A stretch of DNA of 64,000 nt, from NCBI GenBank assembly GCA_963804165.1, contig CAWDPO010000045.1, positions 64,001 through 128,000 on the forward strand. The letters run 5' to 3'. The first letter of the stretch is position 1; each line of letters opens with the position of its first letter. A program made the translations under genes and the position numbers. Under the pieces are notes generated by a model. It ran no database searches, was not told the DNA's origin, and worked only from the letters and a program-made list of their open reading frames with translations. Positions 3,135-64,000 of this stretch are shown here, piece after piece. The stretch is from an uncultured delta proteobacterium. Its GTDB lineage: Bacteria > Desulfobacterota > Binatia > UBA9968.

Positions 3135-3260
3135 TCCGCCTTCACGATAATCCACGCACTATGAATCAATACAGAGAGATGAAGTTAGACAGTCTGGGGC
3201 CCCGCTTTGGTGACGAACTCTTGGTTGCGCCGCGCCTTTTTCGGACTGAAGCAACCCTGA

Positions 3261-3488
3261 TCAGTGCTCGTCGATCCACGTCTGCGCCATGAGCACAGCA
3301 AACTCATCCGCTTCACGTTGCGTGCAATAAGCGTGATTGAATTGATATTGATGCGAGGGGTATTCCATCTTTTGGGTCGCGGCTTCCTGATGTGTCACGG
3401 TATATTGTGGCACCCAGGTGCCATTTTTTTCGCGCTGGAACGATTCGCTGCGAATCACATAGTCTTTGTACGAAGTATCCTGTTTCAT
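3261..3488 (-). CDS. Small hypothetical protein, CV_2116-like family (copy 1)
   Basis: YKDYVIRSESFQ..W.PQY...EADEFA..WID; clear paralog at 59321. Confidence 0.65.
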   Translation of the reverse strand: MKQDTSYKDYVIRSESFQREKNGTWVPQYTVTHQEAATQKMEYPSHQYQFNHAYCTQREADEFAVLMAQTWIDEH

Positions 3489-3574
3489 GTTCGCCGACAC
3501 TCTGACTTTGTTCAAGCAGGGCAGTCACCCATCGGCACGCGCCTATTGGAGAGTTATCTGATTTCCTCAATACG

Positions 3575-3748
3575 TTATAAAATCGGAAGCGCCGAGCGAA
3601 TTTCCGACTCCGCCGTCGGCTGATTGCCTTCTTGCGAGCTGTCGGGAGATTTCGCCTTTTCGTTACGCCGCTCAATTTTGCGTGCCGCCTTTTTCTGTTG
3701 CTTTTCCTTGCGCGCCCAAGCCTTTTGGCGCTTCTTAAAGGTTTCCAT
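3575..3748 (-). CDS. Small basic protein, 57 aa (METFKKRQKAWARKEKQQKKAARK...)
   Basis: Translated by hand, not in ORF track; GGAGGAGA RBS; K/R-rich helix. Confidence 0.65.
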   Translation of the reverse strand: METFKKRQKAWARKEKQQKKAARKIERRNEKAKSPDSSQEGNQPTAESEIRSALPIL

Positions 3749-4704: not shown

Positions 4705-4720
4705 CGTCCAAAACTAGACA
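4705..4720 (-). promoter_or_regulatory. Crp-type palindromic box 1 (CGTCCAAAACTAGACA)
   Basis: Degenerate match to TGTCYAATATTRGACA with the shared A/T-rich distal flank. Confidence 0.6.
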
Positions 4721-4765: not shown

Positions 4766-5455
4766 CTACGCAATCTGCGCCAAGTAATCGGTGAGTTTCT
4801 TTTCTTTGATGATGAGAAAACGATCCTTGTTGGTCTCGATCAGACCAAGGTTATGGAAGCGCTGCATGAACAAGCTGATCCTTGGCCGCGTCGTGCCCAC
4901 CATCTCGGAGAGTTCTTCATGGGAAATCTTCAGCTCAATGCGGATGCTACGCGGGTCCTTCTTGCCCATGGAGCGGGCCAACTGCAACAACGTCCGGCCC
5001 AGCCGCTGTTCGCTATCCACCGTCACGAGATTAGCGATCACCTGCTGCTGGTCGGCAATCCGCACCGCCAGGTAGCGCACGAAACCCTCGAACAACGAGT
5101 CGCGGCTTAGACGCCCCAAGAATTGAGAGCAAGGAATCTGCTTCAGCATCGTTTGCTTCATCGCCGTCGCCGTTTCGAGGCGCGTGCCTAAGCCGGACAG
5201 GCATAGCTCACCGAAAACGTCTCCCGGACCCTGAATGGCCAGCAGGCACTCTTTGCCGTCGGACGACAGCATGAGCAGCTTGATCTGGCCGCTTTCAACA
5301 AAATAGACCATCTCGTCTTGATCGCCGCACGTATATACGTTCGCGTGTCGAGCGATCTTGACGGCGCGAGTATTCAGGGTCTCGCGCACTAGCGAATCAC
5401 GTAGTTGTTGTTTGAACTCGTCGGCTTGAGGAGTCTGTTGAATCGCCATCATCAT
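4766..5455 (-). CDS. Crp/Fnr family transcriptional regulator (paralog 1)
   Basis: cNMP-binding fold (GDVFGELCL) plus HTH SHEELSEMVGTTRPRIS; AGGAGA RBS before ATG 5455. Confidence 0.92.
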   Translation of the reverse strand: MMMAIQQTPQADEFKQQLRDSLVRETLNTRAVKIARHANVYTCGDQDEMVYFVESGQIKLLMLSSDGKECLLAIQGPGDVFGELCLSGLGTRLETATAMKQTMLKQIPCSQFLGRLSRDSLFEGFVRYLAVRIADQQQVIANLVTVDSEQRLGRTLLQLARSMGKKDPRSIRIELKISHEELSEMVGTTRPRISLFMQRFHNLGLIETNKDRFLIIKEKKLTDYLAQIA

Positions 5456-5746
5456 GTCTCCTATCGATGCCCACGATGAAAACAACGACGGTCGACTTTC
5501 CTGGGGCGCTCGTTCGGTTATCCTTCGGCGAAGAACCTCCGCGGTTGACGGGCACCTATGAGACTATCGCGCGGCTGGCGCCGTGTCCAGGGGGGATGCT
5601 GTCCAATGCTTGAGCTGTTTCCGTATGTACCACAGCAAACTAAGCTGGTTAATCTAAGCTGGTCAATCCAAATTGCGGTGACCAAATTAGATTTGAGAGG
5701 AGTGAGCACGCTCCACAAGAGAGCCCTCCAACTGTTTTTGAACTAT

Positions 5747-7210
5747 TTATGACTCCTTTGGTTCGTAGGCAACGACGCGGTCACCGCCGGCCTGCTTGGC
5801 CGCATACATGGCATTGTCAGCCGCGTGGAGTAATTCAGCAGCCGTGGAACCGTGTTCAGGCGCATCGGCAACGCCAGCCGATACAGTGATCGCGCCTGGC
5901 GTCGAGAACCCGTGCCGAATCTGCTTTTCTTTAACCAGCACGCGGATTTGTTCCACGCGTTGATGGGTGTCCGCGAGCGATGAATCGGGCAGCACGAGGA
6001 CAAACTCATCGCCGCCATAGCGGCACGAGATATCGCTCTTGCGCAGCTTTTCACGCAGCGCTTGCGCCAACTCGCGTAACATCGAGTCGCCGGCGTCGTG
6101 GCCGAAGGTATCGTTGAACGGCTTAAAGTTATCGAGGTCGAGCATCACGACGCAGAGCGGCGAGTTGCCACGCCGCGCTCGATGCAGCTCGCGCGCTAGA
6201 TTCTCTTCCAAATAGCGCCGATTGCATAGCCCGGTCAGAGGATCATGGGTAGCCTGTTCGCGCAGCTCCTCCCGTAGTTTCAAATTATACAAAGACAGCT
6301 TGATCGTTTCGCCCACCGCCACGGCCAGTTGTTGCCTCGTGACCGAACCGATAAGTTTTCCTGCCGCGCCGGTGAGACACAACAGTCCGGTTGCTCCGCT
6401 CTTGACTATCAAAGGTACACACAAATAGCCGGCCTGGGGTTGATGGACAAAGTGATGACACAGCAAATCCACCCGGGGATCGATGACTTCATGCAATTGA
6501 CCGCGCCGTATCGCCCAACAGTCCTCCAATGAAAAGGGGGACTTTAGCGGTGACTCGTTGCCCCAATGGGCAACCTTCTCCAAGTGTTGATTCCGGCCGC
6601 CCGAAATAGCTAATCCGCCACTGTCCTCGGTAAATAATTCATTCGCCATCAGGCCAACCACCTGGTAGGCCTCGGCCTGGGTGGTGCACGATTGAAGCAG
6701 ATCGTTTAGGCGGATGAGCGACTTCATTTCCTCGTCACGCCTTTGTAGTTCAGCCACCGAAGCCCTCAACTCGTCATTGACCTTCCGTATACCCTCCTCG
6801 GCCTGTTTGCGGGCAGTAATGTCGCGGACGTTGCACTGGATCACGCGCCAGCCGTCGACCAGGTAGACATTGCTGACGAACTCCACCTGGATTTGTTGTC
6901 CGGCTTTGGTTTCCAACGGCAGGTTCTCGTAACGGATGTATTCCTTTTTCTGCAAGTCGCGCATGGCGTCCTGGCTCGCGGCAATATCTTTGACTGGACC
7001 GATCTCCCAGAGCGCCTTGCCGATTAACTCGGTGTGAGAATATCCCAGCATGTCTTGCAGGAACGGGTTGACGTCGGTGACCCGTCCCGTGTCCGCATCC
7101 AGGAGGAGAATACCGTCCTTAGCCGTCTCGAAGAGGCGCCGGTAGCGAAGTTCGGAAGCTCGCGACTGCTCCCGCGTGAGCGTGGCGCCATTGTCGGTGT
7201 TATCATCCAT
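5747..7210 (-). CDS. Diguanylate cyclase PAS-GAF-GGDEF (paralog 1)
   Basis: PAS (DITARK), GAF, HDPLTGL, RKSD I-site, RYGGDEF. Confidence 0.92.
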   Translation of the reverse strand: MDDNTDNGATLTREQSRASELRYRRLFETAKDGILLLDADTGRVTDVNPFLQDMLGYSHTELIGKALWEIGPVKDIAASQDAMRDLQKKEYIRYENLPLETKAGQQIQVEFVSNVYLVDGWRVIQCNVRDITARKQAEEGIRKVNDELRASVAELQRRDEEMKSLIRLNDLLQSCTTQAEAYQVVGLMANELFTEDSGGLAISGGRNQHLEKVAHWGNESPLKSPFSLEDCWAIRRGQLHEVIDPRVDLLCHHFVHQPQAGYLCVPLIVKSGATGLLCLTGAAGKLIGSVTRQQLAVAVGETIKLSLYNLKLREELREQATHDPLTGLCNRRYLEENLARELHRARRGNSPLCVVMLDLDNFKPFNDTFGHDAGDSMLRELAQALREKLRKSDISCRYGGDEFVLVLPDSSLADTHQRVEQIRVLVKEKQIRHGFSTPGAITVSAGVADAPEHGSTAAELLHAADNAMYAAKQAGGDRVVAYEPKES

Positions 7211-7318: not shown

Positions 7319-7334
7319 TGTCTAATATTGGACA
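7319..7334 (-). promoter_or_regulatory. Crp-type box 2 (TGTCTAATATTGGACA) upstream of cyclase 1
   Basis: Near-perfect palindrome; GATAAT 22 nt downstream on the minus strand. Confidence 0.75.
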
Positions 7335-7699: not shown

Positions 7700-9157
7700 C
7701 TAGCCCACGCTGCCTTCGAGACTGACGCCTAGAAGCTTCTGGGCCTCCACGGCAAACTCCATCGGCAGCTCGCGAAACACCTGCTTGCAGAAACCATTGA
7801 CGATCAGCGTTACCGCATCCTCCGGCGAAATACCGCGCTGTCTGCAATAAAAAAGCTGATCTTCGCCGATCTTCGAGGTCGAAGCCTCGTGCTCCACCTG
7901 CGAGGAACTGTTCATGACTTCGAGATAAGGGAAAGTATGCGCGCCGCACTTATCGCCCAGCAGCAACGAGTCACACTGAGAATAATTGCGTGCGCCGGTA
8001 GCGCCCTTCATCACTTTCACGAGCCCCCGATAGGTGTTTTGCCCGTGTCCCGCGGAGATTCCCTTCGAAATGATCGTGCTCTTGGTATTTTTCCCGATGT
8101 GGATCATCTTGGTGCCCGTATCCGCCTGCTGATAGTTGTTGGTGAGTGCCACCGAGTAAAACTCCCCAACCGAGTTGTCACCCCGCAGGATGCAGCTCGG
8201 ATATTTCCAGGTGATCGCCGAGCCGGTCTCTACCTGCGTCCAAGAAATCTTGGAGTTGATTCCCACACACTTGCCCCGCTTGGTGACAAAATTGTAGATC
8301 CCGCCCTTGCCGTCCTTGTCGCCGGGATACCAGTTCTGCACCGTCGAGTACTTGATCTGTGCGTTGTCGAGAGCAACAAGTTCCACGACCGCGGCATGCA
8401 GCTGGTTCTCATCCCGCATCGGCGCGGTGCAGCCTTCGAGATAACTTACGTAGCTACCCTCATCGGCAACGATCAACGTGCGCTCAAATTGGCCTGTCTC
8501 GGCGGCATTGATGCGAAAGTAAGTCGATAGCTCCATCGGGCATCGCACACCTTTGGGGACGTAAACGAAGGAACCGTCACTGAAGACAGCTGCGTTCAAG
8601 GCCGCGAAGAAGTTGTCGCTGTAGGGCACCACCGAGCCGAGATATTTTTTCACCAGCACGGGATGTTTCTGCAGCGCCTCGGAAAAGGAACAAAAGATGA
8701 TCCCCAACGCTCCCAGCTTTTCCTTGAACGTCGTCGCCACCGACACGCTGTCGAAGACCGCATCGACCGCCACGCCGGTGAGCCACTTTTGCTCGGACAA
8801 TGGAATACCGAGCTTCTCATAAGTTTCGAGCAGCTTGGGGTCGACCTCGTCGAGGCTTTTTAGCCCCGCGTTTGTCTTCGGCGCCGAATAGTAGATGAGG
8901 TCCTGGTAGTCGATCGGCGGATAGTGAACGTTGGCCCACTTGGGTTCTGCCTGCGACTTTGCCAGCTTCTCCCAGTGCCGGTAGGCCTTCAGGCGCCAGT
9001 CCAGCATGAAGTTCGGCTCGTTCTTCTTGCCGGAAATCAAGCGAACGATTTCCTTGTTGAGCCCGCGAGGCACCGTGTCGGTCTCGATGTCGGTGACAAA
9101 CCCGTACTTATACTCCCGGCTGAGAAGCTCCTGCGGGTTGTATGTGGAAGTGTTCAT
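7700..9157 (-). CDS. sufB: Fe-S cluster assembly protein SufB (stand-alone)
   Basis: [42 protein letters not shown]; true start likely ATG 9157, not 9415. Confidence 0.95.
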
Positions 9158-9329
9158 GGCTTTACCTTTGCCTTCCTCTGAGAACAGATTCTTGATTGGC
9201 TCAATTCGGCGAGAATTCACTCGTCCATCTCCAAAAAATGACCTGGCCGAAGTGTTCTCTGTGTAAGATCGAGCCCAGCGCCTCCGGGCAGTTAGCAGAA
9301 GACCCTTCTCGCCTCCGAATTGGGAAGAA

Positions 9330-9656
9330 TCAACTAGAACCAACCGCGCTGGCAGCGATCTGGTGCGAGGTCGAATTGCCGACCTCAAAGATCTCCACTT
9401 TGGGAGTGCCTTCAATCACCCTCGACAGGGCGCGCAAAATCTCAGGATAGGTCTTCTGGTTGTAGACTTCCGCGTCCTCTTTTTTATTCCAGAGACTGAT
9501 CGTCAATGCCTCATTACGATCCGCAGCGACAAAACTAATCGCATCGTCAAATCCTCTTTGCCTTCTGAGCAAGGGAATGACCTCTCCCTCAAGAATCTTC
9601 GTAAACTCCACCGCGCTCTTCGCCTTGAGTTTAAAACTCACGTTTCGGCTATACAT
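9330..9656 (-). CDS. ABM-like (antibiotic biosynthesis monooxygenase fold) protein (copy 1)
   Basis: [21 protein letters not shown]; paralogs at 58168 and 60102. Confidence 0.7.
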
Positions 9657-9782: not shown

Positions 9783-10085
9783 TTAGTTGCTCGTTTGATG
9801 CGCGGCAAATTCGAGAGCTTTGAGACGATATTCCAGCTGTTCCTGAAACCATGTATCCCTGGGCCAGTGCCACTGCGCATGCGGCAGAGACTCGCCGCTA
9901 TAGGAGCAGCCATTCACCTTGCTCTGCAAGAAAATGAGCTGCCAGTAGCTCAGCTTGTCCTTTCCCGCACCATCAACACGAGTTCTGGTAAAAAGTTCTT
10001 TCACCAGTTCTGTAATCCCGCTCAAGGACTCTTGCGCCAGGAGTCCAACCGGAAATGATAGATTGTCCAGATGACCCACCTTCAT
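9783..10085 (-). CDS. Hypothetical protein, 100 aa
   Basis: GGAGG RBS before ATG 10085; downstream of Crp box 3. Confidence 0.5.
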   Translation of the reverse strand: MKVGHLDNLSFPVGLLAQESLSGITELVKELFTRTRVDGAGKDKLSYWQLIFLQSKVNGCSYSGESLPHAQWHWPRDTWFQEQLEYRLKALEFAAHQTSN

Positions 10086-10343
10086 TGCGACCTCCGCGAT
10101 AATTTTTTTCTTCAGACCAAAAGCAGTCCGCGCGCACGACTCGGGCCGGTTGCAGCGCGATGGTTCCTGTCCGCTCTTTTGCCGGTGTTTTAGTCCTGGC
10201 CCGGCCGGTATTATGGACAGATCGAGCGCAGCACAAATGGAGAGCGGAGAAAGCCATGCGAGTCGTCGCTTAACAACCACTACTCGGCCTCCTCGTCTAA
10301 ACCGTCTATTGGATTCAATCTATGCCGACTCGACAGAAGTTTC

Positions 10344-10359
10344 CGTCTAATATTGGACA
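10344..10359 (-). promoter_or_regulatory. Crp-type box 3 (CGTCTAATATTGGACA)
   Basis: TAGATT exactly 21 nt downstream on the minus strand. Confidence 0.75.
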
Positions 10360-10478
10360 GGAATTGAAAAGAATTATCACACCCAGCTTCCAATCACTAA
10401 AAAATGCTCCGGGACACGTTTTCATTGCGTAATATCAACGAATTTTGGCAAACGATGCAGAAACATCGGCTGATTTCT

Positions 10479-10986: not shown

Positions 10987-13397
10987 ACACCGAAGAAGAA
11001 GAAAAGGAATCCTCTAAATCCAAGCAGCGTCTCAATATTCCCGAAGGAGCCTTGGTCATCATACCGATGCGCAATCGGGTGCTGTTCCCCGCCATGATGA
11101 TGCCGCTTTCGGTCCGTAGCCCGGCCAGGCGCCGCGCTGTCGAGGAGGCGGTTCGACAACAAGTGCCGATTGGATTTGTTGTCCAACGCGATCCGAATAT
11201 AGAAGTTCCAGAGCCCAAGGACCTCTACGCGGTCGGCACCGCCGCGGATGTTGTAAGGATGTTTACCCTGCCGGACGGTCAGCGTCAGGTTCTCCTGCAA
11301 GGCCGCCGCCGCTTTGAGATCGGCGAATTCCTCGAGACCGATCCGGTTCTTATCGCGCGCGTCACGATGGTGGAAGAAAAGATACCGCAGACCAAGGACT
11401 TCGAGGCGAGAATCTTACATCTACGTCAAGAAGCAGCCCGGGCCTTGTCGTTATTCTCTGAGCCCATGAACGAACTAAGATCGATGATCGATAGGATTGA
11501 AGATCCCTTATCGGTTATCGATATGATCGCTTCCACCTTGGACCTTCCGACCGCCGAGAAACAAGAAATCCTCGGAATACTCGACCCGGAGGCGCGCGCC
11601 CAAAGGGTTTCAGAAAAGTTGGCGCGGCAGATTGAACTGCTGGAACTGAGCAAGAAAATCGGCACTGAAACCAAGGAATCCATGGACAAGTCGCAGCGCC
11701 AATATTTCCTGCGCGAACAATTGAAGGCAATCCAGAAAGAGCTGGGTGAGGCGGATGGGAAAGGTGTCGAGGTTGAGGAACTAAGAAAAAAACTTTACGA
11801 CGCTAAAATGCCTCCTGAGGTGGAAAAAGAAGCGCTTAAAGAGCTGGCTCGTTTAGAGCGCATTCCCGAGGCGGCGCCGGAACACTCGCTGTTGCGGACT
11901 TATTTCGATTGGTTGGTGGAGTTGCCCTGGAGCATTTTTACCGAGGAAGAGATCGACCTGCCGAAGGCGCGCCAGATTCTTGACGCCGACCATTACGGTC
12001 TGGAAAAAGTGAAAAAGCGGATCATTGAATTTCTCGCTGTTCGTAAACTCATGCCGCATGGAAAGAGCCCGATTCTCTGCTTGGTCGGACCGCCGGGTGT
12101 CGGAAAAACCTCCCTTGGACAAAGCATTGCTCGGTCGATGAATCGTAAGTTCGTACGCCAAAGTCTGGGCGGCGTCCATGATGAAGCCGATATTCGCGGG
12201 CATCGGCGTACCTATGTCGGCGCGCTTCCGGGCAATATCATTCAAGGAATCCGCAAGGCAGGCAGTCGAAATCCTGTCTTCATGCTCGATGAAGTGGACA
12301 AACTCAGCGCGAGTTTTCATGGCGACCCGTCCGCGGCGTTATTGGAGGTCCTCGATCCCGCTCAAAATGCCACCTTTCAAGACCACTACATCGCGCTGCC
12401 CTTCGATCTCAGCCAGGTGCTGTTCATCGCTACGGCGAACGTGCTCGATACCGTTCCCGGCCCGCTGCGCGATCGCATGGAAATCTTGGAATTGCCGGGA
12501 TACATCGAGGAAGATAAATTGGCCATCGCCAAGGGCTACCTCGTTCCTCGGCAGACCGCCGAAAATGGCCTGAAGCCGGAAAACATTAGTTTCACCGACG
12601 AGGCGATTCGAGAAATTATCCGGTCCTACACGCGCGAGGCCGGGGTTCGGCAACTCGAGCGTGAGCTGGGAGCAGTTTGCCGGAGCGTGGCCACGCGTAT
12701 CGCGGAAGGGTTCAATGAAACGATCACAGTCAAGCCGGAATCTATTCCTACCTACTTGGGCCCGCAAAAGTTCTTCAACGAGATCGCTCTGCGCACCAGT
12801 TTGCCCGGTGTAGCCACCGGCTTGGCCTGGACGCCGTTCGGCGGGGACATTTTGTTTGTCGAAGCGACAAAGATGGCGGGAGATGGAAGGTTACTATTAA
12901 CCGGCCAGCTCGGCGATGTCATGAAAGAAAGCGCGCAGGCCGCTTTGAGCCTGGTCAAATCTCGCGCGGAATCGTTGGGAATCGATTCCGATATCTTCAA
13001 GAAAATCGATTTACACATTCATCTCCCGGCGGGCGCGATCCCGAAAGACGGTCCGAGCGCTGGAATCACGCTCTTTGTCGCGCTCGTTTCACTGCTGACC
13101 GGGCGACGAATCAGCAAAGATGTCGCCATGACCGGTGAGATCAGTTTGCGTGGTTTGGTGCTCCCGGTAGGAGGAATCAAAGAGAAAATGCTCGCGGCAA
13201 AGAGAGCCGGGATTTCCACGGTTCTGCTGCCTGAGTTAAACCGGAGAGACCTTGAAGAAATACCCCCGGCAGGCCGCGACGGGATCCGCTTCGAATTTTT
13301 AAAAACCGCGGACGAAGCTTTGCGGCTTGCGCTCAAGGCCGACGCCCCGAGCGGTTATTCTCCTGGTGAAAGACTGGCGGCTCAATTTCTTTCATAA
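10983..13397 (+). CDS. lon: ATP-dependent protease La
   Basis: LON N-domain, GPPGVGKT, HRRTYVGALPG, PKDGPSAG (catalytic Ser), VGGIKEK. Confidence 0.96.
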   Translation: MNTEEEEKESSKSKQRLNIPEGALVIIPMRNRVLFPAMMMPLSVRSPARRRAVEEAVRQQVPIGFVVQRDPNIEVPEPKDLYAVGTAADVVRMFTLPDGQRQVLLQGRRRFEIGEFLETDPVLIARVTMVEEKIPQTKDFEARILHLRQEAARALSLFSEPMNELRSMIDRIEDPLSVIDMIASTLDLPTAEKQEILGILDPEARAQRVSEKLARQIELLELSKKIGTETKESMDKSQRQYFLREQLKAIQKELGEADGKGVEVEELRKKLYDAKMPPEVEKEALKELARLERIPEAAPEHSLLRTYFDWLVELPWSIFTEEEIDLPKARQILDADHYGLEKVKKRIIEFLAVRKLMPHGKSPILCLVGPPGVGKTSLGQSIARSMNRKFVRQSLGGVHDEADIRGHRRTYVGALPGNIIQGIRKAGSRNPVFMLDEVDKLSASFHGDPSAALLEVLDPAQNATFQDHYIALPFDLSQVLFIATANVLDTVPGPLRDRMEILELPGYIEEDKLAIAKGYLVPRQTAENGLKPENISFTDEAIREIIRSYTREAGVRQLERELGAVCRSVATRIAEGFNETITVKPESIPTYLGPQKFFNEIALRTSLPGVATGLAWTPFGGDILFVEATKMAGDGRLLLTGQLGDVMKESAQAALSLVKSRAESLGIDSDIFKKIDLHIHLPAGAIPKDGPSAGITLFVALVSLLTGRRISKDVAMTGEISLRGLVLPVGGIKEKMLAAKRAGISTVLLPELNRRDLEEIPPAGRDGIRFEFLKTADEALRLALKADAPSGYSPGERLAAQFLS

Positions 13398-13429
13398 AAT
13401 AGATTGGCTCGCATAACCGACAACGGAGC

Positions 13430-13668
13430 CGCCAGTTTATAGGAACTTGTGGTGCGATCGAGCGTAAGTGTGACAACACATCAATTCCCTGGAGGCGAGG
13501 CGGGTGAAGATCGGAAAGCACGAGATCAAATCGAAACTTGTCTAGCAAGTCCAGAGCCTCATCGCCGTCTCTTGCCTCTTTGACCTGGTAACCCGCTGCG
13601 CACAAAAACAGCCTGACACTTTGTCGAATGAGAGGGTCAGCTTCGATAACTAGAAATTTTTTTGTCAC
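13430..13668 (-). pseudogene. Truncated response regulator receiver domain
   Basis: FLVIEAD...DLVLSD...PQVPI, then similarity is lost where it meets the 3' region of lon. Confidence 0.55.
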
Positions 13669-14722: not shown

Positions 14723-14738
14723 TGTCTAATATTGGACG
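14723..14738 (-). promoter_or_regulatory. Crp-type box 4 (TGTCTAATATTGGACG)
   Basis: TAGGGT 21 nt downstream. Confidence 0.75.
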
Positions 14739-20075: not shown

Positions 20076-20126
20076 TTCCGTCGATTTACGAACTCGACGT
20101 TCTTTCCTGGCTTAATCATCGGCTGT

Positions 20127-49738: not shown

Positions 49739-49754
49739 GGTCTAATATTGAACC
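49739..49754 (-). promoter_or_regulatory. Crp-type box 11 (GGTCTAATATTGAACC)
   Basis: TAAGCT 21 nt downstream. Confidence 0.7.
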
Positions 49755-49923: not shown

Positions 49924-49939
49924 TGTCCAATATTGGACA
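49924..49939 (+). promoter_or_regulatory. Crp-type box 12 (perfect palindrome) facing plus-strand genes
   Basis: CTGTCCAATATTGGACAG; A/T flank on the left; CAGCAT 21 nt downstream. Confidence 0.78.
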
Positions 49940-50946: not shown

Positions 50947-52812
50947 CTAACCGCGGTGAATTGCCCGCTTAATCGTAGCGAGAACTTCTTCTTCAGCGTA
51001 CGGCTTCTGAAACACTCCGTTCAGCTCTCCTTTTGCCAATAGCGACTCGACTTCGGCGGACACGTAACCGCTGGCAATGATTCCTTTCAGCTTTGGATTG
51101 ATTTTTCTCATCTGTTGAAAAGCTTCCCAGCCATTCAGTTTCGCCAAGCCCCAATCAAGAATCGCTATGGCGATCTCGTCTTTGTGTCGAGCATGCACTT
51201 CCACCGCTTCGGGTCCGTTTTGCGCGGTCAAGACTCTAAATCCTTCCCTTTCCAGTAAATCTCGCATCAAATCAGAGAGCCTTGCCTCGTCTTCCGCATA
51301 GAGAACCGTCTCACGACGCCGTGATCGATCCTCTATGTTGTTTTGCCCGGCAATTACCGCAACTGCCGCTCCCTCGTCTCCTGGAATCGGCAAATAAATA
51401 TGGAACGTCGAACCGCAACCTGGTTCACTGGTTACCTCGACGAAGCCGGCATGTACACTGACCATACCGTGAACTATTGAAAGGCCGAGACCCGTCCCTT
51501 GGTCCGGCTTCTTGGTGGTAAAATAGGATTCAAAGACCCGGCTCCTAACGTCTGCCTCCATTCCAATGCCGGTATCTGCGACGCTGATGTGTACGTATTG
51601 TTCTGCTTTGGCTTTGGAGAAGCGTTGGCGCAGAACGGCACCCAAGGTCGTTTGAGTCTGCAATAGAATTTTCCCGCCGTCCGGCATTGCGTCCCGCGCG
51701 TTAATGCAGAGATTGAGTATTATCTGATATATGAGACCGGCATCGATCATGATCATCGGCACGCGGGGATCGAAATCTGTCGCGATCACGATTGTCGTCG
51801 GAAACATCGGAGACAATAATTTAATCATTCGTTGAAGCAGGCCATTGATATCTGCAAGTTCGAAATCTGTCTCTGTCTTTCGCCCAGCCGCGAGGATCTG
51901 CCGCGTCAGCCCCACCCCCTCCTCGACGGTTGCCCTGATCACTTCCGCGTGCTCGACAACATTATTTGGTTCGGTCGGACTCGTCATAATCAGTGTTGCA
52001 TAGGCCCGGATGACATTTAAAACGTTATTGAAATCGTGAGCGATGCTGGCCGCGACGTTATTTACGTCGGTCTTTCTCCTAGTCAATTTCGCCGTGCTTT
52101 CCACGATCCGCGCCTGCAACTCGCCGTTTAGCTGCTGCAGCTTCTCTTCCACCCTCGTTTTGTTCTCAAGGTGCGCCTGCAATGCTGCGTTTGTGGCGGC
52201 TAAGTCCAACGCTTGTTGACGCTTGTCTCGGGCTACGGCTTCGTCGCCGGCCCGTGCTTGCCATAATTGCCAGGAGGCCGACGCGAATTGAGCTAGTGTC
52301 TTGATGATCCGTTCGTCTTCCCGATCGAATTTGCGGCGCTCGTCGTGGGCGACGACCCACACCGTGCCGATCGGTTTGTGCCCGACGTGAAACGGGATGA
52401 GCAAGGCCTCGACGACGGGCGGCTGCGATCTTAGCGCTGGGAAAATGCGCTCCGCCATGTACATGAGCTGAGCTGCGTTCCGGTCGATTGTGGTGCCACA
52501 AGGACTTGCGTCTCTGGGCATCGTGGCGTTACGGCGGTCGCTAAAGACTCCCGCCAGCGCCTCCCAACGGAACACCTCCGCGCCATCTTTTTCGTCTAAC
52601 AAGCTGATTCCGGCGGTATCAGCGCGGCAAAGTTGCAAGGCTGTTTCGGCGAGCCTTTGCAAGATCATATTGGGCGCATCCGCAAGGGTCTGCGCCAGAG
52701 CGATCAAAGCCTGATTTTCGGCTTTATAGTTGGGTGCTTTGGAGGGTCTGTTTAGGAGCTCGGAATTTATGACGACGTCTTCTAACCGCAATGGAGATTG
52801 GTGCACATTCAT
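50947..52812 (-). CDS. Hybrid histidine kinase GAF-HisKA-HATPase-REC
   Basis: AHDFNN, NLCINARDAMP, GTGLGLS, C-terminal REC; GGAGG RBS before ATG 52812. Confidence 0.9.
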   Translation of the reverse strand: MNVHQSPLRLEDVVINSELLNRPSKAPNYKAENQALIALAQTLADAPNMILQRLAETALQLCRADTAGISLLDEKDGAEVFRWEALAGVFSDRRNATMPRDASPCGTTIDRNAAQLMYMAERIFPALRSQPPVVEALLIPFHVGHKPIGTVWVVAHDERRKFDREDERIIKTLAQFASASWQLWQARAGDEAVARDKRQQALDLAATNAALQAHLENKTRVEEKLQQLNGELQARIVESTAKLTRRKTDVNNVAASIAHDFNNVLNVIRAYATLIMTSPTEPNNVVEHAEVIRATVEEGVGLTRQILAAGRKTETDFELADINGLLQRMIKLLSPMFPTTIVIATDFDPRVPMIMIDAGLIYQIILNLCINARDAMPDGGKILLQTQTTLGAVLRQRFSKAKAEQYVHISVADTGIGMEADVRSRVFESYFTTKKPDQGTGLGLSIVHGMVSVHAGFVEVTSEPGCGSTFHIYLPIPGDEGAAVAVIAGQNNIEDRSRRRETVLYAEDEARLSDLMRDLLEREGFRVLTAQNGPEAVEVHARHKDEIAIAILDWGLAKLNGWEAFQQMRKINPKLKGIIASGYVSAEVESLLAKGELNGVFQKPYAEEEVLATIKRAIHRG

Positions 52813-52892
52813 GTTGCCTCCACCTGGGATTTCTCCCTTGTAGGTCCTTTTCGTGAAAAAAACGCACCATATTATCCTTCTGGTTAACAATC

Positions 52893-52908
52893 TGTCTAAA
52901 ATTGGACA
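52893..52908 (-). promoter_or_regulatory. Crp-type box 13 (TGTCTAAAATTGGACA)
   Basis: TATGGT 21 nt downstream. Confidence 0.75.
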
Positions 52909-52934
52909 AATTGAAGAAAAAATGGCCACGCGGT

Positions 52935-53335
52935 TTGGCGCAAGTGGAGGTAACATCGGAGGAGGCGGCGCACCCGATCGAGTCGGGATTGCTAACCGGG
53001 GACTGAATCGGGTTGGCGAGCTGCGCAACCGGGACCGCAGACCGTGCGCCTTGTGTTTGACCAGCCGCTGAGAATCAAGCGTCTGCATTTGGATTTTCGC
53101 GAAGATGAATTGGAGCGCACTCAGCAGTTTGTGCTGCGGTGGTTCGTCAAACGGCGGGCAATCCTATCGGGAAATCGTGCATCAGCAGTATAATTTCAGC
53201 CCTCCCGCCACGAACAGTGAGTGCGAGGATTATCCTGTGGAACTTGACGGTGTCACCACGATCGAGCTGAGCATCGTTCCAGACATCAGTGGCGGACCGG
53301 CCCGCGCGTCGCTCGCGCAGTTTCGCCTTGCGTGA
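52935..53335 (+). pseudogene. 5'-truncated, twice-frameshifted putative carbohydrate-binding protein gene
   Basis: VEVTSE..HPIES / GWRAAQPGPQTVRLVFDQP..RTQQFVLRW / REIV.QQYNFSP..PDISGG.ARASL in three separate reading segments. Confidence 0.6.
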
Positions 53336-53795: not shown

Positions 53796-55895
<2,100 letters not shown>

Positions 55896-56046
55896 GTGTA
55901 ACTCAGCTTTCTTTTTGAAAGACTCTTTGCCGGGTTCCGGCGGATTGATAAGAGCGATGGAAGTTAAATCCACCGCGGCGGGGAAAAACTATCGGCGCCG
56001 CCTCATTCCTGCTGTACTCATTGACGTCGGCTCGGTGTTCTTCGTG

Positions 56047-56617
56047 CTACACTTTTCGGTAAGGGTTGACGTACTCCTCGTAGAGCCCTTCCTTGCCTTT
56101 GGCTTGTAACTCGCGCGACCGGTCCGTGAGAACCTTTTTGTCTTCGACAAAAGCCTTCCTGGTAAATCCTAAATTACCGGGATGGGTGCCGGTGTCCATG
56201 CGAATCGCGTCGCACGGACAGGCTTCGACGCAAAAGCCGCAATAGATGCAGCGCAACGTATCGATTTCATAGCGCACCGCGTACTTCTCGACCGGATCAC
56301 GCGGGTCTTCTCCGGCCTCGATGTAGATACACTCAGCCGGGCAGGCAGTTGCGCACAAGAAAGCAAGCCGTGCAGTTGGCGGTGTCATCCGCGCCGAGAG
56401 TCAGACGGTGACGGCCGCGAAAGGTGTCCGGGTAAGAAGCTCTTTCCTCCGGATATTGCACCGTGACATCGGCTTGACGGGTTTTCGCCAAACCGAAGGC
56501 GTGCAAAATATGGATGCTCAGATTACGCCAAAAGCGGAACCCGGTTACGGAGAGACCGCGCACGATCTCCGGCACGTACGCTCTCTCCCAGAGCGACATG
56601 TGTTCAATTCTTTTCAT
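56047..56617 (-). pseudogene. nuoI: NuoI-like 2[4Fe-4S] subunit with a one-base frameshift
   Basis: TVQYPEE..FRGRH..CTACF | [19 protein letters not shown]; one extra A in the run at 56360-56362. Confidence 0.8.
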
Positions 56618-56637: not shown

Positions 56638-57246
56638 TCATTTTGGTAGGCTGTCTTCGAGATTATCCGCCAACTCGCCGCCCATGTAGAGTTCAATTTG
56701 CTTTTTTTCCAGCCGTCGTTTTTCCTCGGCGTCCATGACGTACACGCCGTTCACCGCATCGATTTGCTTTGGCTCGTAAAAATTCCTGGACAGCTCGGCG
56801 CCCTCGTCGAATTCGTACATCTTTATCGCATCCCAGGGGCAGATTTTTTTATCGAGCCGATCGTCGGACTCCGTGCCAATCAGCTCCAGCTGAAATTTCT
56901 TCGGCAGCCTGTTCTCATCGACCGGCTTTTTGGAGCTGTCGTAATATCTCCCGGCATACTCGCGGAAGATTTCGCCGGTTTCCTTGTGCCGATGGATCTT
57001 GGTTAAATCATCACTGAAACACATCTGGCAGCCGATGCACTTGTCGTTGTCTACCCAGACTCGATAGGGCTTCAGTCCTCCGGCGGGGGTTTCCTCATAG
57101 AGTAAATTAATGCAGTTTTCCACCGGGCAGTGGAGTTCGCATAGCGGCGAGCCGGCACAGCTACTACAATTTTCGTCCATGACGGCGAGCAGCGCGGTGC
57201 CTTTTCGCTTCTTCTTCTCTTCAGGTTGTGCCGTCAGATCTGGCAT
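56638..57246 (-). CDS. Atypical 4Fe-4S ferredoxin-like protein
   Basis: CSSCAGSPLCELHCP; CIGCQMC...long insert...CPWDAI. Confidence 0.75.
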   Translation of the reverse strand: MPDLTAQPEEKKKRKGTALLAVMDENCSSCAGSPLCELHCPVENCINLLYEETPAGGLKPYRVWVDNDKCIGCQMCFSDDLTKIHRHKETGEIFREYAGRYYDSSKKPVDENRLPKKFQLELIGTESDDRLDKKICPWDAIKMYEFDEGAELSRNFYEPKQIDAVNGVYVMDAEEKRRLEKKQIELYMGGELADNLEDSLPK

Positions 57247-57510
57247 GCTTTCTCTCCAGTAGGTTACTGAACACCTCTTTTGACGCCTGTATTCATCCTG
57301 ATCGTGCCCGTGAGACTTGACCCGTGAATTAATCGAGCACAATCACATGCGCGCAGGCAGCGGTCTGGCAACTGGATCCAAGAACCTCTTGATTGTCTTT
57401 GACTAGGGACCATACGCAAAATCACGAATAGGCACACGCTAACCGCGTCAAACGGCTTGCCAAAAAAGAGCCTTTTCGATTTAAACTTACCTTGTGTGGG
57501 AAGGGGTTAC

Positions 57511-57526
57511 TGTCTAATATTGAACG
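57511..57526 (-). promoter_or_regulatory. Crp-type box 14 (TGTCTAATATTGAACG)
   Basis: TAAGTT 21 nt downstream. Confidence 0.72.
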
Positions 57527-60505: not shown

Positions 60506-61036
60506 TCAGTTATGCGAACCCGACTCGGGTAATCCGTGGGTCTTTTCAGCCTCTTTGCGTGCGAGTGCTTTGTCGACCTGCTCTTCCGTCGCACCTCTTG
60601 TCTCTCCCAACACTTCGGAAAGCTCACAAATTAGGAACTTTTTCGCCTTATTCAGTGTTTGTCGATCGCGCAGAGAAAGCGCCCTGATTTCGTTCAGCAT
60701 CGTCAGGGACTCAACGATTTCTGCCAAGTCAAATGCCGAACCCGAGCTCAACAGTTTCAAGTTGTCGATCGCACGCTGCTTCCAGTTTTTGGCTGTCGTG
60801 ACTGCATTCTCCAAATAGCTCAGCAGTTTCGGAACTTCCGATTTGCCCATTAACTGCCGCATCCGCAGAGCCTTGACTTTATCTACTGGGACAAAAACTG
60901 CGTCGCCGCTATCGTCCAACAACGTCAGGCGGTAAACGCGTGTCGTCCGACCCGCAACAATCTTGTTTTCCACTGCATCGATCAGGCAGGGGCCCTGAGA
61001 AGGATAAACGACCTTATTCCCAATACTGAACGGCAT
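60506..61036 (-). CDS. carD: CarD/CdnL family RNA polymerase-binding regulator
   Basis: F.IG.KVVYP.QG, VPV, NWKQR, A...L..EL; GAGGAGG RBS. Confidence 0.85.
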   Translation of the reverse strand: MPFSIGNKVVYPSQGPCLIDAVENKIVAGRTTRVYRLTLLDDSGDAVFVPVDKVKALRMRQLMGKSEVPKLLSYLENAVTTAKNWKQRAIDNLKLLSSGSAFDLAEIVESLTMLNEIRALSLRDRQTLNKAKKFLICELSEVLGETRGATEEQVDKALARKEAEKTHGLPESGSHN

Positions 61037-61046
61037 TGGATCCTCC

Positions 61047-62024
61047 TCAAACATTCACATCCTCAAAACCTCTTTGGCTTCCCTCAGACATGTTCTCCAG
61101 CCGATGGAGCATGGCGCGAATACTGCCGGTGGCCATCGCAATGCTTGTGTCGGCAGCACCGTAGTAGAGACGCAGGGTGTCGCCATCGGGAGCGATCGTC
61201 GTGCCGCAAGGGAAAACGACATTGTCGACATCGCCGCGCTGCTCATAATCTTCTTCCGGACCAAAGACCCATTCATCGCTGCGTTTCAGACAACGCTCCG
61301 GCGCTGCCAAATCAAACAACGCAAGCCCCAAGCGGTAAATCGCGCCGGCGGCTGTCTGGCGCACGCCATGATAGATCACTAACCAGCCTTGAGGTGTTAG
61401 TAGCGGCGGCGGTGAGAGACCTATTTTGTTAGCGTCCCACCAAGCACCCCGCCGCGCCTGTAGCATCAGCTTGTGCTTGCCCCAGTGGCACAGGTTCTCT
61501 GAAAACGAGATCCACATATGCGCGCGCGGCGCGCTCACCGGCCGGTGAATCAAGGCCCACTGACCGCCGATCCGATGGGGAAGCAGCGCGGCATCTTTAT
61601 CTTCCGGCGGCATGATGACGCCGTAGCGCTCGAAATCGCGGAAATTCTCCGTGAGCGCCAGCGAGACGCCCGGGCCGTCGCGTGTGAACGCCGTGTAGAC
61701 GACGGCGTATTTTTTTAGTTCTTCAACGTAGGTGATGCGCGGATCCTCGATGCCCCATAATTCTTCCGGATAACGTTCCGGATCGGCCGCCATCGTCGGT
61801 TGGGACTCGATCTGCCAATGATCGACGCCGTTGACGGAGCGGGCGACAGACAAATGGGAATGGCCGCGGCGATCTTCAACGCGACAAAGCAGTAGCGTCG
61901 TGCCATCGGGCAGTAACGTCGCTCCCGGGTTAAACACGCTGTTCACGGGATAGGGCCAATCCGCGGCAGTTAAGATCGGATTGTGCGCGCAACGTTCAAA
62001 GAGCTCGACATGATGATTGGACAT
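61047..62024 (-). CDS. GH130-family glycosidase/phosphorylase
   Basis: VFNPGA, EDPR, KDAALLP, HRP, YHGV, VVFP, YYGAAD. Confidence 0.88.
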   Translation of the reverse strand: MSNHHVELFERCAHNPILTAADWPYPVNSVFNPGATLLPDGTTLLLCRVEDRRGHSHLSVARSVNGVDHWQIESQPTMAADPERYPEELWGIEDPRITYVEELKKYAVVYTAFTRDGPGVSLALTENFRDFERYGVIMPPEDKDAALLPHRIGGQWALIHRPVSAPRAHMWISFSENLCHWGKHKLMLQARRGAWWDANKIGLSPPPLLTPQGWLVIYHGVRQTAAGAIYRLGLALFDLAAPERCLKRSDEWVFGPEEDYEQRGDVDNVVFPCGTTIAPDGDTLRLYYGAADTSIAMATGSIRAMLHRLENMSEGSQRGFEDVNV

Positions 62025-64000
62025 TAAGATCCTGCCTCCACGGTCAGGAGTGTACTTTCAGCCAGACGCAGTTCCAGCACGGCCTGAAGAAAGGCCAGGG
62101 AAGACTCCGCGCCCTGATTTTCATTCGGGCGGTCGGGATGCAAGCCATCTCGACAACCTCCCGTCGTCGGATCGTAGATAGGAAGGTTAAGATCGTTGCG
62201 GCCGAGGAACCAGTCGAAAGCCATCCGCGCTTCCTTGTACCAGTTCTTGTCGCCCGTAATCCGATGCGCTTCGAGGCAGGCGGAAACCATCGCTTGGGCC
62301 TCCACCGGTTGCTGATCGAAGCGAGCTCGTTTACCGCCGCGCTGATAAAAACCGTTGGAGCCGATCGGCACAAAATGACCGCCGTTTGTCTTGTCTCGCT
62401 GAAGATCAGCGAGCCACGCGAGGGACTCGAGCGCGGCGTCATTCATGGTCCTGTTCGGTATCGATTGGCCGCACATCAGAAAAGCGTGGGGCAGCGCTGC
62501 GTTGCAGTAACTCAGACTTTCTTCAAACCAGCGCCATTCATCCGAGCGATTCGCTTGATACAACGTGAGCAGCCGCCCAGCCAGTTCCTCGCGCACCTGA
62601 CTTGCCCGGCGGTCGCCGTCGTAACGGCGCAGATATTCGTGAATGCCGATCAGTGCGAAGGCCCAGGCCCGAGGACTGGTGGTCGTGAGAATTGCGGGCA
62701 GTGCCTGCTCAAACAGCCGTCCCGCCATGCTCTGGAGCCCGGGTGTGTTAGAGCGTCCCAACAGTGTGCCCAACGCCCACAGGGTGCGGCCGTGGCTGTC
62801 GTCTGAACCGCTCGCCTCCAACCAATTGCGCTGGTAATCCATAAAATTGCGGAAGCGTTTGGTCTCGCCGTTGAAGGCGTAGCAGATGAAAGCGAGATAG
62901 CGCGAGACGGTCTCGGACGCTTCGGAGTGGCCCAATTCATCCGCTAAGACACTTACCATCAGGGCCCTGGCGTTATCGTCGACGGTGTAACCTTCGCGAT
63001 AGTTGGGCAAAGTAAAAAGCGCGTGCTGCAACATGCCGGTATCGTCGGTCATGCGCCGCAAGTGATCCAGTTTGAGCGGCGGCAGTTCCGCCGGCCGCTT
63101 GTCGAGCGGCTTCACCGCGAAAACACTTGGCGTGAAATTGCGTTTCTCGGCTCTGGCCCGAGCAAAACTCTCCATGTAACGGCGGGCGACGTGCGGCCAG
63201 ATCATCTCCCGTCCGAACATATAAGCGCGCTTGCGCATGGCGTGGCGCTTGGCCTCGTTGTCCAATAGGTCAATGACTTGCGCGGCCAAAGCCGGAGGAT
63301 CGCGGAACGGCACCAGCGCGCCGCGTTCGTCAGCGAGCATTTCTTCAGCGTACCAATAGGGCGTCGAAATCACCGCTTTGCCCGCCCCCAGAGTATATGC
63401 CAGCGTGCCCGACACAATCTGCGCTTGGTTCTGATAGGGGGTAATATAGATATCGGCCGCGCCGATGAATTCGACGAGTTCCTCCAATGTGACAAACTGG
63501 TTGTAAAAAATGACTTGGCCTTCGACGCCTTTTGCTTGCGCGAGCCGTTGCAAAGAGAGCCGATAGGTTTCACCGTCGTGCTGCTTGACGTGCGGATGGG
63601 TTGCGCCGACGATGAAGTACACCACGTTCGGATGCTTGGCGAGAATCGCCGGCAGAGCCGCGATGACATTTTCGATGCCTTTGTTCGCTGACAATAAACC
63701 GAAACTAAGTAAAACGATTTTGCCTTCGACGCCGAACAGATCCTTGTGAAACCCCGGGTCAACGAAAGGCAGATCGGGAATACCGTGCGGTATCATGTCA
63801 ATCTTCGCGGTCGGCACGCGATAGATCTCGTGCAAGAATTTTGCGCCGCGTTCGCTCATGACGACCAAGCGATCCGACAGCGCAGCCACTTCTTCCAAAA
63901 CCCGGCGCTCATGGGCATCGGGCTCACGTAAAATAGTATGCAGGGTCGTGACGATGGGCATGCGCAATTCGCGCAGCAACGCCAAAATATGGCTGCCGGC
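62024..64000 (-). CDS. GT4 glycosyltransferase with C-terminal helical domain (5' partial)
   Basis: IPHG, KGIE, SGTLAY; C-terminal TDD.G.LQHA, DDNARAL, FDQQP.E, NQGAES; TAATG coupling to GH130. Confidence 0.88.
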   Translation of the reverse strand, partial: AGSHILALLRELRMPIVTTLHTILREPDAHERRVLEEVAALSDRLVVMSERGAKFLHEIYRVPTAKIDMIPHGIPDLPFVDPGFHKDLFGVEGKIVLLSFGLLSANKGIENVIAALPAILAKHPNVVYFIVGATHPHVKQHDGETYRLSLQRLAQAKGVEGQVIFYNQFVTLEELVEFIGAADIYITPYQNQAQIVSGTLAYTLGAGKAVISTPYWYAEEMLADERGALVPFRDPPALAAQVIDLLDNEAKRHAMRKRAYMFGREMIWPHVARRYMESFARARAEKRNFTPSVFAVKPLDKRPAELPPLKLDHLRRMTDDTGMLQHALFTLPNYREGYTVDDNARALMVSVLADELGHSEASETVSRYLAFICYAFNGETKRFRNFMDYQRNWLEASGSDDSHGRTLWALGTLLGRSNTPGLQSMAGRLFEQALPAILTTTSPRAWAFALIGIHEYLRRYDGDRRASQVREELAGRLLTLYQANRSDEWRWFEESLSYCNAALPHAFLMCGQSIPNRTMNDAALESLAWLADLQRDKTNGGHFVPIGSNGFYQRGGKRARFDQQPVEAQAMVSACLEAHRITGDKNWYKEARMAFDWFLGRNDLNLPIYDPTTGGCRDGLHPDRPNENQGAESSLAFLQAVLELRLAESTLLTVEAGS

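Follow-up and report, generated by a model that had tools for sequence, protein, structure and literature searches.

A candidate two-tier stress regulon combining a sigma-54 two-component system with Crp paralogs in an uncultured member of the Binatia

Introduction

Judged by analogy, the closest known system to the one treated here is MrpAB-MrpC of Myxococcus xanthus. In the available extracts of the published reports, the enhancer-binding protein MrpB acts from two upstream sites to activate mrpC, whose promoter is putatively of the sigma-54 type, and MrpC, a Crp/Fnr protein, competes for sites that overlap those of MrpB (PMC10701913). MrpC binds the sequence TGTYN8RAC at hundreds of developmental promoters (PMC4320627, in extract) and has been tied to the metabolism of cyclic di-GMP (c-di-GMP) (PMC8844925, in extract). 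In the Rrp2-RpoN-RpoS system of Borrelia burgdorferi, an NtrC-type activator and sigma-54 turn on RpoS (extracts of PMC2940757 and PMC3037356). The present work concerns a 64,000-nucleotide stretch of DNA, the window (G000:C45:64001-128000), from a 7.5-Mb metagenome-assembled genome (MAG) of 46 contigs. The window contains an NtrC-type activator with its sensor kinase, two Crp paralogs (Crp1 and Crp2), eight putative sigma-54 promoters that share one enhancer and 15 putative promoters that share one box of Crp geometry.

CsbD, YtxH, BON, entericidin, ferritin/Dps-like proteins, superoxide dismutase (SOD) and Usp belong to the stress regulons run by SigB, RpoS or EcfG. An earlier note on this DNA had pointed to general-stress cargo of this type in the window and had stated that no sigma factor gene lies there. 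A Pfam scan of 113 + 44 open reading frames (ORFs) of the window confirmed the named cargo families and gave no sigma-family match. The locus suggests that sigma-54 together with a Crp-family activator can take the place of a stress sigma factor in the wiring of the usual stress cargo. The whole two-layer model, in which the sigma-54 two-component system would switch on Crp2 and the Crp paralogs would in turn act at the Crp-box promoters, is given a probability of roughly 0.6 from sequence comparison; the assignment of each protein to its motif and the sign of regulation are predictions of the same kind. Little is known of how uncultured soil bacteria regulate their survival under drying or starvation.

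The sigma-54 promoters and their candidate activator

The enhancer, CGACynTTTGGTCGA followed by TCGAC, was first seen as a palindrome common to the regions upstream of several -24/-12 elements, and dyad counting in the window recovered its CGACC-N4 dyad together with the TGTC-N8 dyad of the Crp box. With at most one mismatch allowed, the core CGACYNTTTGGTCGA is matched eight times in the window, each time on the minus strand, whereas 100 shuffles give an expectation of 0.05. At all eight enhancers TCGAC follows the core after 6-7 nt, in many cases with another CGAC some ten bases beyond it, and a GGCA(C/T)-N5-nTGC element starts 108-111 nt downstream of the core, with columns that are invariant across the eight promoters. 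The GG and GC dinucleotides of this element are ten bases apart at every site, as in -24/-12 promoters, and the spacing of 108-111 nt lies within the range of an upstream activator site common to co-regulated promoters (about 80-150 nt from the promoter). All 46 contigs were searched with a relaxed composite pattern, in which a -24/-12-like match was sought 95-135 nt downstream of an enhancer-like match. There were 36 enhancer-like matches, nine of them with a -24/-12-like match: the eight window sites at 108-111 nt and one weak match at 99 nt. Three other exact core matches (on C10, C13 and C14) lack the second element and the promoter and apparently lie in coding sequence. Since the composite with 108-111 nt spacing was found only in the window, the sigma-54 regulon of the assembled genome would comprise eight promoters in a span of 24 kb. 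The genome has a single rpoN, represented by a Sigma54_DBD match of 210 bits on C38.

One of the eight promoters (19953-19966) faces the operon of an OmpA-family protein, the kinase and the activator, and another (24681-24694) faces DUF3309 and Crp2 (Table 1), as the earlier note had described. The first of these would drive the activator's own operon and thus make the system autoregulated. The activator has a receiver, an AAA+ domain with GAFTGA and a C-terminal Fis-type helix-turn-helix, as do members of the NtrC family; GAFTGA is found at residue 220, the Walker A motif GESGTGK at 173 and the receiver Asp in LILTDQ. It reaches neither of the NCBIfam equivalogs AtoC (540 bits, cut-off 714) and ZraR (443 bits, cut-off 760). 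Two predicted membrane helices of the kinase (residues 11-29 and 308-326) flank an extracytoplasmic domain of about 280 aa, and the kinase scores 256 bits against the ZraS model, below the cut-off of 479. A search for related loci with the activator gave paralog-level matches only (at most 52% identity), in many phyla, and was uninformative on orthologs.

Relatives were compared in 40 genomes, 24 of the same genus, five of family f2 and 11 of family f3. Orthologs of the activator (67-88% identity) are present in 25 of the 40, namely 10/24 in the genus, 4/5 in f2 and 11/11 in f3, and the next-best matches reach at most 48% identity. In a class-wide sample of 150 genomes, 18 from the order of the window and 132 from 16 other families, orthologs were found only in the order (14/18: f1 4/8, f2 2/2, f3 8/8) and in 0/132 of the others. 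The enhancer and sigma-54 promoter stand before the (OmpA-)kinase-activator operon in nine of 11 fetched loci of relatives, drawn from all three families, and in G029, G027, G014, G004 and G019 the genes below the enhancer likewise run OmpA-kinase-activator. Because its own operon carries the enhancer in these nine loci, the protein most likely to bind it would be the local NtrC-type activator. The number of enhancer promoters per fetched stretch is one in f3 loci and four to eight in genomes of the genus. Sixteen exact core matches were checked in relatives, and four of them are composite (G017, G003, G002 and G033). The activator gene was not found in the assemblies of G017, where the site lies on a 4-kb contig, and G003; G002 has a partial activator, and G033 is a sister of G031. 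None of the core matches in G013, G023, G009, G012 and G020, all without the activator, is composite. A second copy of the activator, 70% identical, is present in both G014 and G015; the one in G014 has an enhancer core some 2.5 kb away (G014:C4:419853-423746).

The Crp box and the Crp paralogs

The Crp box, TGTCyAATATTrGACa, was resolved from a TGTC-N8-GACA dyad found by dyad counting. With at most two mismatches the pattern GTCYAATATTRGAC has 14 matches in the window against 0.30 expected, and a weight matrix adds the site at 31457. Of these 15 boxes, 13 are in minus and two (34902 and 49924) in plus orientation. The numbers of the earlier note, eight sigma-54 promoters with one enhancer and about 15 promoters with a Crp-geometry box, were both borne out, and the two sets form distinct promoter classes. 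Genome-wide the matrix recognises 39 sites, and 24 of these are on contigs other than that of the window. The sequence TAnnnT follows the box after 17-27 nt at 29 of the 39 sites (24 of these at an offset of 20-21), against 6.7% in random DNA. This offset would place the box centre at -41.5, the position of a class II Crp/Fnr activator, since class II activation by Crp/Fnr proteins uses a site centred near -41.5. The box is a 16-bp palindrome of the form 5-6-5 with no evident -35 element, a geometry that fits class II, with binding predicted. Consensus sigma-70 promoters have four matches in the 19-39 kb region against 10.8 +/- 3.4 in shuffles; by this crude test they are fewer, and the deficit fits activator-dependent promoters.

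Both Crp paralogs match cNMP_binding (PF00027) and HTH_Crp_2 (PF13545), the domains of Crp/Fnr proteins. They share 83% identity, and their helix-turn-helix motifs are nearly identical, so that Crp1 and Crp2 should read the same box. No named equivalog reaches its cut-off: NtcA, the best match of Crp2, scores 59 bits against 245, PtrA, the best match of Crp1, 60 bits against 300, and CRP 55-56 against 266. Among solved structures, GlxR, mycobacterial Crp, CooA and NtcA come closest (E 1e-16 to 1e-21), and a homolog of Crp2 at 89% identity, P0104, has the source name 'Candidatus Binatia bacterium'. A look-up in a protein atlas gave generic Crp clusters and nothing more specific. A third Crp paralog, at 75% identity, is located on C43, and neither motif was found within 900 nt upstream of it. 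Because of this paralog and the 24 outside boxes, the earlier description of the regulon as self-contained fails for the Crp tier and is only partly right.

The targets outside the window were taken from 20 downstream ORFs at 14 of the 24 outside sites, near-duplicates and ORFs of low coding score being left out. They include tandem Usp, an ATP-dependent DNA ligase domain, PG_binding_1, DUF445, an alpha/beta hydrolase, an XRE/Gp49 pair, a DTW-domain protein, an SNF2-related helicase, a receiver and Sigma54_activat pair, and an OmpA protein with collagen repeats together with a DPBB lytic transglycosylase; five of the 20 have no Pfam match. No ribosomal or other core housekeeping family is present among these 20 ORFs. 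The OmpA and collagen-repeat protein (C12:54468-56084) has the domains of the first gene of the activator operon. At C22:21524-23339 a receiver ORF and a Sigma54_activat ORF lie behind a Crp-box promoter; together they make up a further activator, possibly split by a frameshift, through which the Crp tier may feed a further sigma-54 regulon. Clusters of Crp boxes at C2:245279-258338 and C24:84516-93577 carry near-identical copies of tandem Usp and small lipoprotein genes, which represent either real duplication or assembly redundancy. In the window, two paralogous PAS-GGDEF diguanylate cyclases (5747-7210 and 47101-48666) are both in Crp-box operons, one of them directly upstream of Crp1, which hints that c-di-GMP is coupled to the Crp paralogs.

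Box and Crp subfamily are both confined to the genus, in counts that take in the unpublished genome G005. Of the 24 genus genomes 18 contain the exact 14-mer box, against none of the 16 from the other families, and a reversed control pattern has zero matches; the Crp subfamily (E<=1e-30) is found in 17/24 and 0/16. A search with two mismatches in five relatives gave counts close to those of the control. A matrix scan of 374 kb of loci from relatives gave 40 box sites (some loci overlap), all in genus loci. Many of them precede orthologs of targets in the window, such as the response regulator, the 66-aa/154-aa genes, the 97-aa gene, 208aa-BON-YtxH and CsbD-MlaC, and also the hybrid kinase, the 115-aa protein and Crp1. 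The link between the two tiers was found in six of nine genomes with fetched Crp loci (G014, G010, G015, G002, G019 and G003), where enhancer, sigma-54 promoter, DUF3309 (with or without two small genes) and Crp2 follow one another; no such link was found in G017, G012 and G007 within the short flanks examined.

Features of the window

The features of the window are collected in Table 1. From about 14.6 kb to 50 kb the called genes are almost all on the minus strand.

Table 1. Positions, strands and associated genes of the regulators, sigma-54 promoters and Crp boxes, with relatives in which the same arrangement was seen
Feature	Position	Strand	Domains or genes downstream	Relatives
NtrC-type sigma-54 activator	15722-17143	minus	473 aa; Pfam Response_reg, Sigma54_activat, AAA_lid_14, HTH_8	
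Sensor histidine kinase	17116-18894	minus	Pfam HisKA, HATPase_c; H-box HEVRNP at 373	
OmpA-family protein	19007-19909	minus	Pfam OmpA, signal peptide, Gly-x-x repeats; first gene of operon	
Crp paralog 1	4766-5485	minus		
Crp paralog 2	23682-24362	minus	226 aa; 57-aa ORF and LapA-domain protein downstream	
Enhancer; sigma-54 promoter	20061-20075; 19953-19966	minus	OmpA-kinase-activator operon	
Enhancer; sigma-54 promoter	22457-22471; 22350-22363	minus	46-aa Cys-rich peptide gene 22150-22290; terminator-like hairpin beyond it at 22015-21995	
Enhancer; sigma-54 promoter	24789-24803; 24681-24694	minus	DUF3309 (24485-24634, Pfam), Crp paralog 2	
Enhancer; sigma-54 promoter	31850-31864; 31742-31755	minus	Entericidin 31548-31694	G018, G014, G015
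Enhancer; sigma-54 promoter	32755-32769; 32646-32659	minus	26-aa membrane peptide 32522-32602, 100-aa ORF 32021-32323	
Enhancer; sigma-54 promoter	34520-34534; 34411-34424	minus	137-aa secreted protein, 40-aa ORF, CsbD 33355-33567, low-affinity iron permease 32814-33236	
Enhancer; sigma-54 promoter	39242-39256; 39133-39146	minus	60-aa membrane protein 38903-39085, CsbD 38502-38714, ferritin-like protein 37898-38317	
Enhancer; sigma-54 promoter	43436-43450; 43326-43339	minus	41-aa peptide, 65-aa membrane protein, class A penicillin-binding protein (PBP) 40388-42964	Gene order in G015, G019
Crp box	4705-4720	minus	Just after Crp1 stop codon, towards small membrane-protein ORFs 3261-3515	Same place in G012, G013
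Crp box	7319-7334	minus	PAS-GGDEF cyclase 5747-7210, Crp paralog 1	Upstream of Crp1 orthologs in G012, G019
Crp box	10344-10359	minus	165-aa ORF 9783-10280, 108-aa ORF, SufBD-like gene 7700-9415	Before ortholog in G018
Crp box	14723-14738	minus	66-aa and 154-aa ORFs, receiver protein 13333-13668	Before 66-aa/154-aa genes in G001, G018
Crp box	21913-21928	minus	M48 peptidase 21055-21729, 196-aa ORF, dodecin 20127-20342	
Crp box	26469-26484	minus	389-aa secreted Gln/Glu/Lys-rich protein 25177-26346	
Crp box	31457-31472	minus	75-aa and 208-aa ORFs, BON 29800-30111, YtxH 29453-29755, GT4 27575-28807, Fe/Mn SOD 26800-27459	Before 208aa-BON-YtxH in G015, before 208-aa gene in G014
Crp box	34902-34917	plus	242-aa ORF 35115-35843, FGase-family gene, transglutaminase-core gene	
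Crp box	39705-39720	minus	97-aa secreted protein 39283-39576	G004, G019
Crp box, perfect palindrome	40318-40333	minus	76-aa ORF 39889-40119	
Crp box	46910-46925	minus	Single-domain response regulator 46411-46815, 64-aa ORF, GT4, O-methyltransferase	Before response regulator in G014, G004, G015, G019
Crp box	49739-49754	minus	CsbD-MlaC fusion (start ~49560, end 48796), second PAS-GGDEF 47101-48666	Before CsbD-MlaC in G018
Crp box, perfect palindrome	49924-49939	plus	115-aa ORF 50346-50693; a paralog on C6 also box-bearing	G018
Crp box	52893-52908	minus	GAF hybrid histidine kinase (frame 50947-53088; real start ~52770)	G018
Crp box	57511-57526	minus	4Fe-4S protein 56638-57342, ferredoxin 56047-56388, possibly FtsH 53796-55973	

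Some further features of these operons can be mentioned. The 389-aa protein (minus strand) is mostly of low complexity, rich in Gln, Glu and Lys and hydrophilin-like, without a Pfam family. The Crp-box operon on the opposite strand covers 35115-37503 (plus), and its 242-aa ORF has no Pfam family. Between promoter 34424 and the 137-aa gene lies an untranslated leader of about 170-190 nt (34245-34410, minus) without an Rfam match; no Rfam family was found anywhere in the window. A REP-like palindromic repeat, GGGCGACC-N4-GGTCGCCC with CTACA/TGTAG flanks, occurs on many contigs (for example C6:58662, C6:159990, C30:88194, C43:288100 and C45:46958) and is unrelated to the enhancer.

Related sequences are found in soil RNA libraries. 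In four runs from two studies, 235-366 contigs per run align to 20001-40000, mostly at 90-95% likeness, and therefore come from relatives. These matches establish the presence of related sequences in RNA libraries only and are no evidence of co-regulation.

Sigma factors of the genome

The genome has 15 matches to sigma-70-family genes, of which 14 were scanned against NCBIfam and a weak fifteenth was left out. One protein passes the RpoD model, eleven are of the extracytoplasmic function (ECF) type, and two RpoD-like paralogs, of 513 and 527 residues, fall short of every model, with RpoS scores near 255 where the cut-offs are 379-394. An ECF-type gene lies 3.2 kb before the window. None of the 14 scanned proteins reaches a SigB/F/G or RpoS cut-off, and EcfG/PhyR was not specifically searched. 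The two RpoD-like paralogs and eleven ECF-type matches are candidate stress sigma factors of this genome, and the absence of a stress sigma factor in the lineage is not established.

The proposed circuit

In the first layer of the proposed circuit, the kinase would sense a signal outside the cytoplasm and phosphorylate the NtrC-type activator. The activator would bind a multi-element enhancer, made up of the palindrome TCGACC-N4-GGTCGA and then one or two CGAC elements about one helical turn apart, and open the eight sigma-54 promoters from about 110 nt upstream. Its own operon would be among the outputs, which amounts to positive feedback. The other outputs would be small membrane peptides (DUF3309, entericidin and others), CsbD, the ferritin-like protein, the iron permease, the class A PBP and Crp2. 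In the second layer, Crp2 and Crp1 would bind TGTCyAATATTrGACa at -41.5 and activate about 39 sigma-70-type promoters, 15 of them in the window. The box before the GGDEF-Crp1 operon would provide amplifying feedback, and the second GGDEF gene, the response regulator, the hybrid kinase and another sigma-54 activator would be further regulators under the control of this layer. The cargo of this layer would include BON, YtxH, SOD, the M48 protease, dodecin, Usp and the ATP-dependent DNA ligase. The inducing signal is probably envelope, osmotic or drying stress.

Several observations weigh against this circuit. The MAG is 81% complete with 5% contamination, so the assembly is incomplete. The genome has at least 39 sigma-54 activator paralogs, another of which might use the enhancer, and the enhancer/promoter pattern was not found at the activator loci of G025 and G018. 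The matrix was trained on the window sites, whose scores are therefore circular; only the 24 outside sites are independent, and those on C2 and C24 include near-duplicates. Part of the stress response could fall to the two RpoD-like sigma factors. Four genomes (G001, G004, G011 and G024) have the box without Crp at E<=1e-30, and three (G007, G013 and G021) have Crp without the exact box. Next to the box, on its promoter-distal side, abuts a conserved A/T-rich stretch of 17 nt (consensus near ATAATTCTTTTCAAAAT; for example 10360-10376 and 39721-39737), which resembles an UP element and may act as one or be bound by a second factor. Finally, the Crp subfamily occurs without an activator ortholog or composite enhancer in the near-complete genomes G007, G021, G023 and G013 and in the unpublished G005, and layer 2 would therefore be generally independent of layer 1.

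Alternative explanations

It is possible, if on the improbable side, that the system is an envelope-stress response of the Zra, Psp or Cpx kind and not a general-stress or dormancy programme, with a kinase that senses envelope damage and an output that repairs it. The kinase has a large extracytoplasmic domain, its operon begins with an OmpA-family gene, and small membrane peptides, entericidin and a PBP make up most of the direct sigma-54 targets, with a LapA-domain protein after Crp2. Among named models ZraS scores best with the kinase, and AtoC followed by ZraR with the activator, and ZraSR is an envelope-stress system; however, the Zra and Ato scores fall below the cut-offs. Cytoplasmic protectants are also part of the output (inside the island ferritin-like proteins, SOD, dodecin and CsbD, outside it Usp and a DNA ligase), which does not suit a response dedicated to the envelope. 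A comparative study, in the extract available, ties sigma-54 to the cell exterior (PMC3162934), and the bias of the direct sigma-54 targets towards envelope proteins fits this published view.

A second explanation is that two independent regulons share one island. Crp1 or the third paralog would run the boxes through a second messenger, and the sigma-54 promoter before Crp2 would be a minor input of recent date and no master switch. The five relatives listed in the preceding section, with Crp and boxes in the absence of the activator and the composite enhancer, are what this explanation predicts, and G012 combines ten exact boxes with no activator ortholog. Crp1 is found in a box-driven operon with a GGDEF cyclase, and 24 of the 39 box sites lie outside the island. 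Against these points stand the sigma-54 promoter before DUF3309-Crp2, kept in six of the nine genomes, and the near-identical DNA-reading helices of Crp1 and Crp2, by which the output of Crp2 should feed the same boxes. The two promoter classes are, moreover, interleaved at distances of a few hundred bases (22363/21913 and 31755/31457). The independence of the regulons as a complete account is thus doubtful. The two-tier wiring claimed earlier is upheld in part: a sigma-54 promoter does stand before a Crp paralog, but the tiers are separable, as the four near-complete genomes indicate.

It is unlikely that the box is read by a regulator other than Crp, or that the Crp proteins repress there. 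The co-occurrence of box and Crp subfamily is imperfect (14 genomes have both, four the box only and three Crp only), and the A/T-rich stretch could belong to another protein. Nevertheless the layout of the box, a 16-bp palindrome at -41.5 with no evident -35, is that of a classic class II Crp/Fnr activator, and the sequence fits the MrpC motif TGTYN8RAC (PMC4320627, in extract). Box and Crp subfamily are both found only in the genus, and boxes flank the Crp genes. As to the check proposed earlier, whether relatives keep the motifs with the regulators, the enhancer is kept at the activator operon (9/11) and the boxes are limited to the genus, with exceptions in the four box-only and three Crp-only genomes. 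That the shared sequences merely stem from a promoter cassette that was duplicated or mobile, and answer to no common regulator, is highly improbable: the oriented box sites do belong to a longer asymmetric cassette with similarity extending for some 60-80 nt, and the copies on C2 and C24 are almost identical, but conservation is limited to the positions of functional elements while the sequence between varies, the motifs precede orthologous genes in other species, and their spacing to the promoter elements is fixed.

The two-layer circuit is thus retained as the preferred reading, a working model that applies to this genome and to some of its relatives. In the simplest history, an old, order-wide autoregulated two-component operon came first and a genus-wide Crp-box regulon arose separately; in some species, the present one among them, the sigma-54 regulon then grew and captured a Crp paralog. 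The regulon would accordingly have grown stepwise, from one autoregulated operon across the order to up to eight promoters in the genus, with a second-tier regulator captured in some species. The circuit is testable, as it consists of two short DNA motifs, three candidate regulators and about 47 predicted promoters of defined geometry. Both motifs could be used as markers for the stress-state transcription of this lineage in soil metatranscriptomes.

Comparison with known systems

Searches of the literature on Binatia with sigma-54 or RpoN, on the exact box sequence, and on sigma-54, CsbD, enhancer-binding proteins and general stress found no description of this circuit among the papers listed. 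The cargo overlaps in its families with the SigB regulon of Bacillus, the RpoS regulon of Escherichia and the EcfG regulon of Alphaproteobacteria. Unlike in those regulons, the switch would not be an alternative sigma factor, within the survey of SigB/F/G and RpoS models given above. The two-component system shares its domain architecture with ZraSR and AtoSC, which are its best-scoring named models, but the scores are far below the cut-offs and the enhancer and regulon differ.

The likeness to Rrp2-RpoN-RpoS is that an activator and sigma-54 would switch on a second-tier global regulator of a large adaptive regulon (PMC2940757, PMC3037356, in extract). The second tier here is a Crp/Fnr activator and not a sigma factor, and the sigma-54 tier has a multi-promoter cargo of its own.

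The analogy with MrpAB-MrpC, drawn in the earlier note, is an apt one. In both systems an enhancer and a -24/-12 element stand before a Crp-family gene, here DUF3309-Crp2 as read from the DNA. In both, the Crp-family regulator would then control many promoters, and the Mrp programme is one of starvation and dormancy (PMC10701913, in extract). The box TGTC-N8-GACA fits TGTYN8RAC, the motif of MrpC (PMC4320627, in extract), and the two box-driven GGDEF genes recall the tie of MrpC to c-di-GMP (PMC8844925, in extract). There are also differences. The activator here is predicted to drive seven other promoters directly, its own operon included, and the kinase has a large extracytoplasmic domain. 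Negative autoregulation by competition for overlapping sites, as by MrpC, is not seen at the Crp2 promoter, where nGTY-N8-RACn was absent from -260 to +60 in the window and in six relatives. Tentatively, an order-specific, envelope-sensing sigma-54 system and a captured, genus-specific, MrpC-like and c-di-GMP-coupled Crp protein, and not an alternative sigma factor, may run the general stress or resting programme in these bacteria, a widespread lineage of uncultured soil organisms. Such an arrangement would parallel the spore switch of Myxococcus, by descent or by convergence, and would hint at a dormancy differentiation that has not been described.

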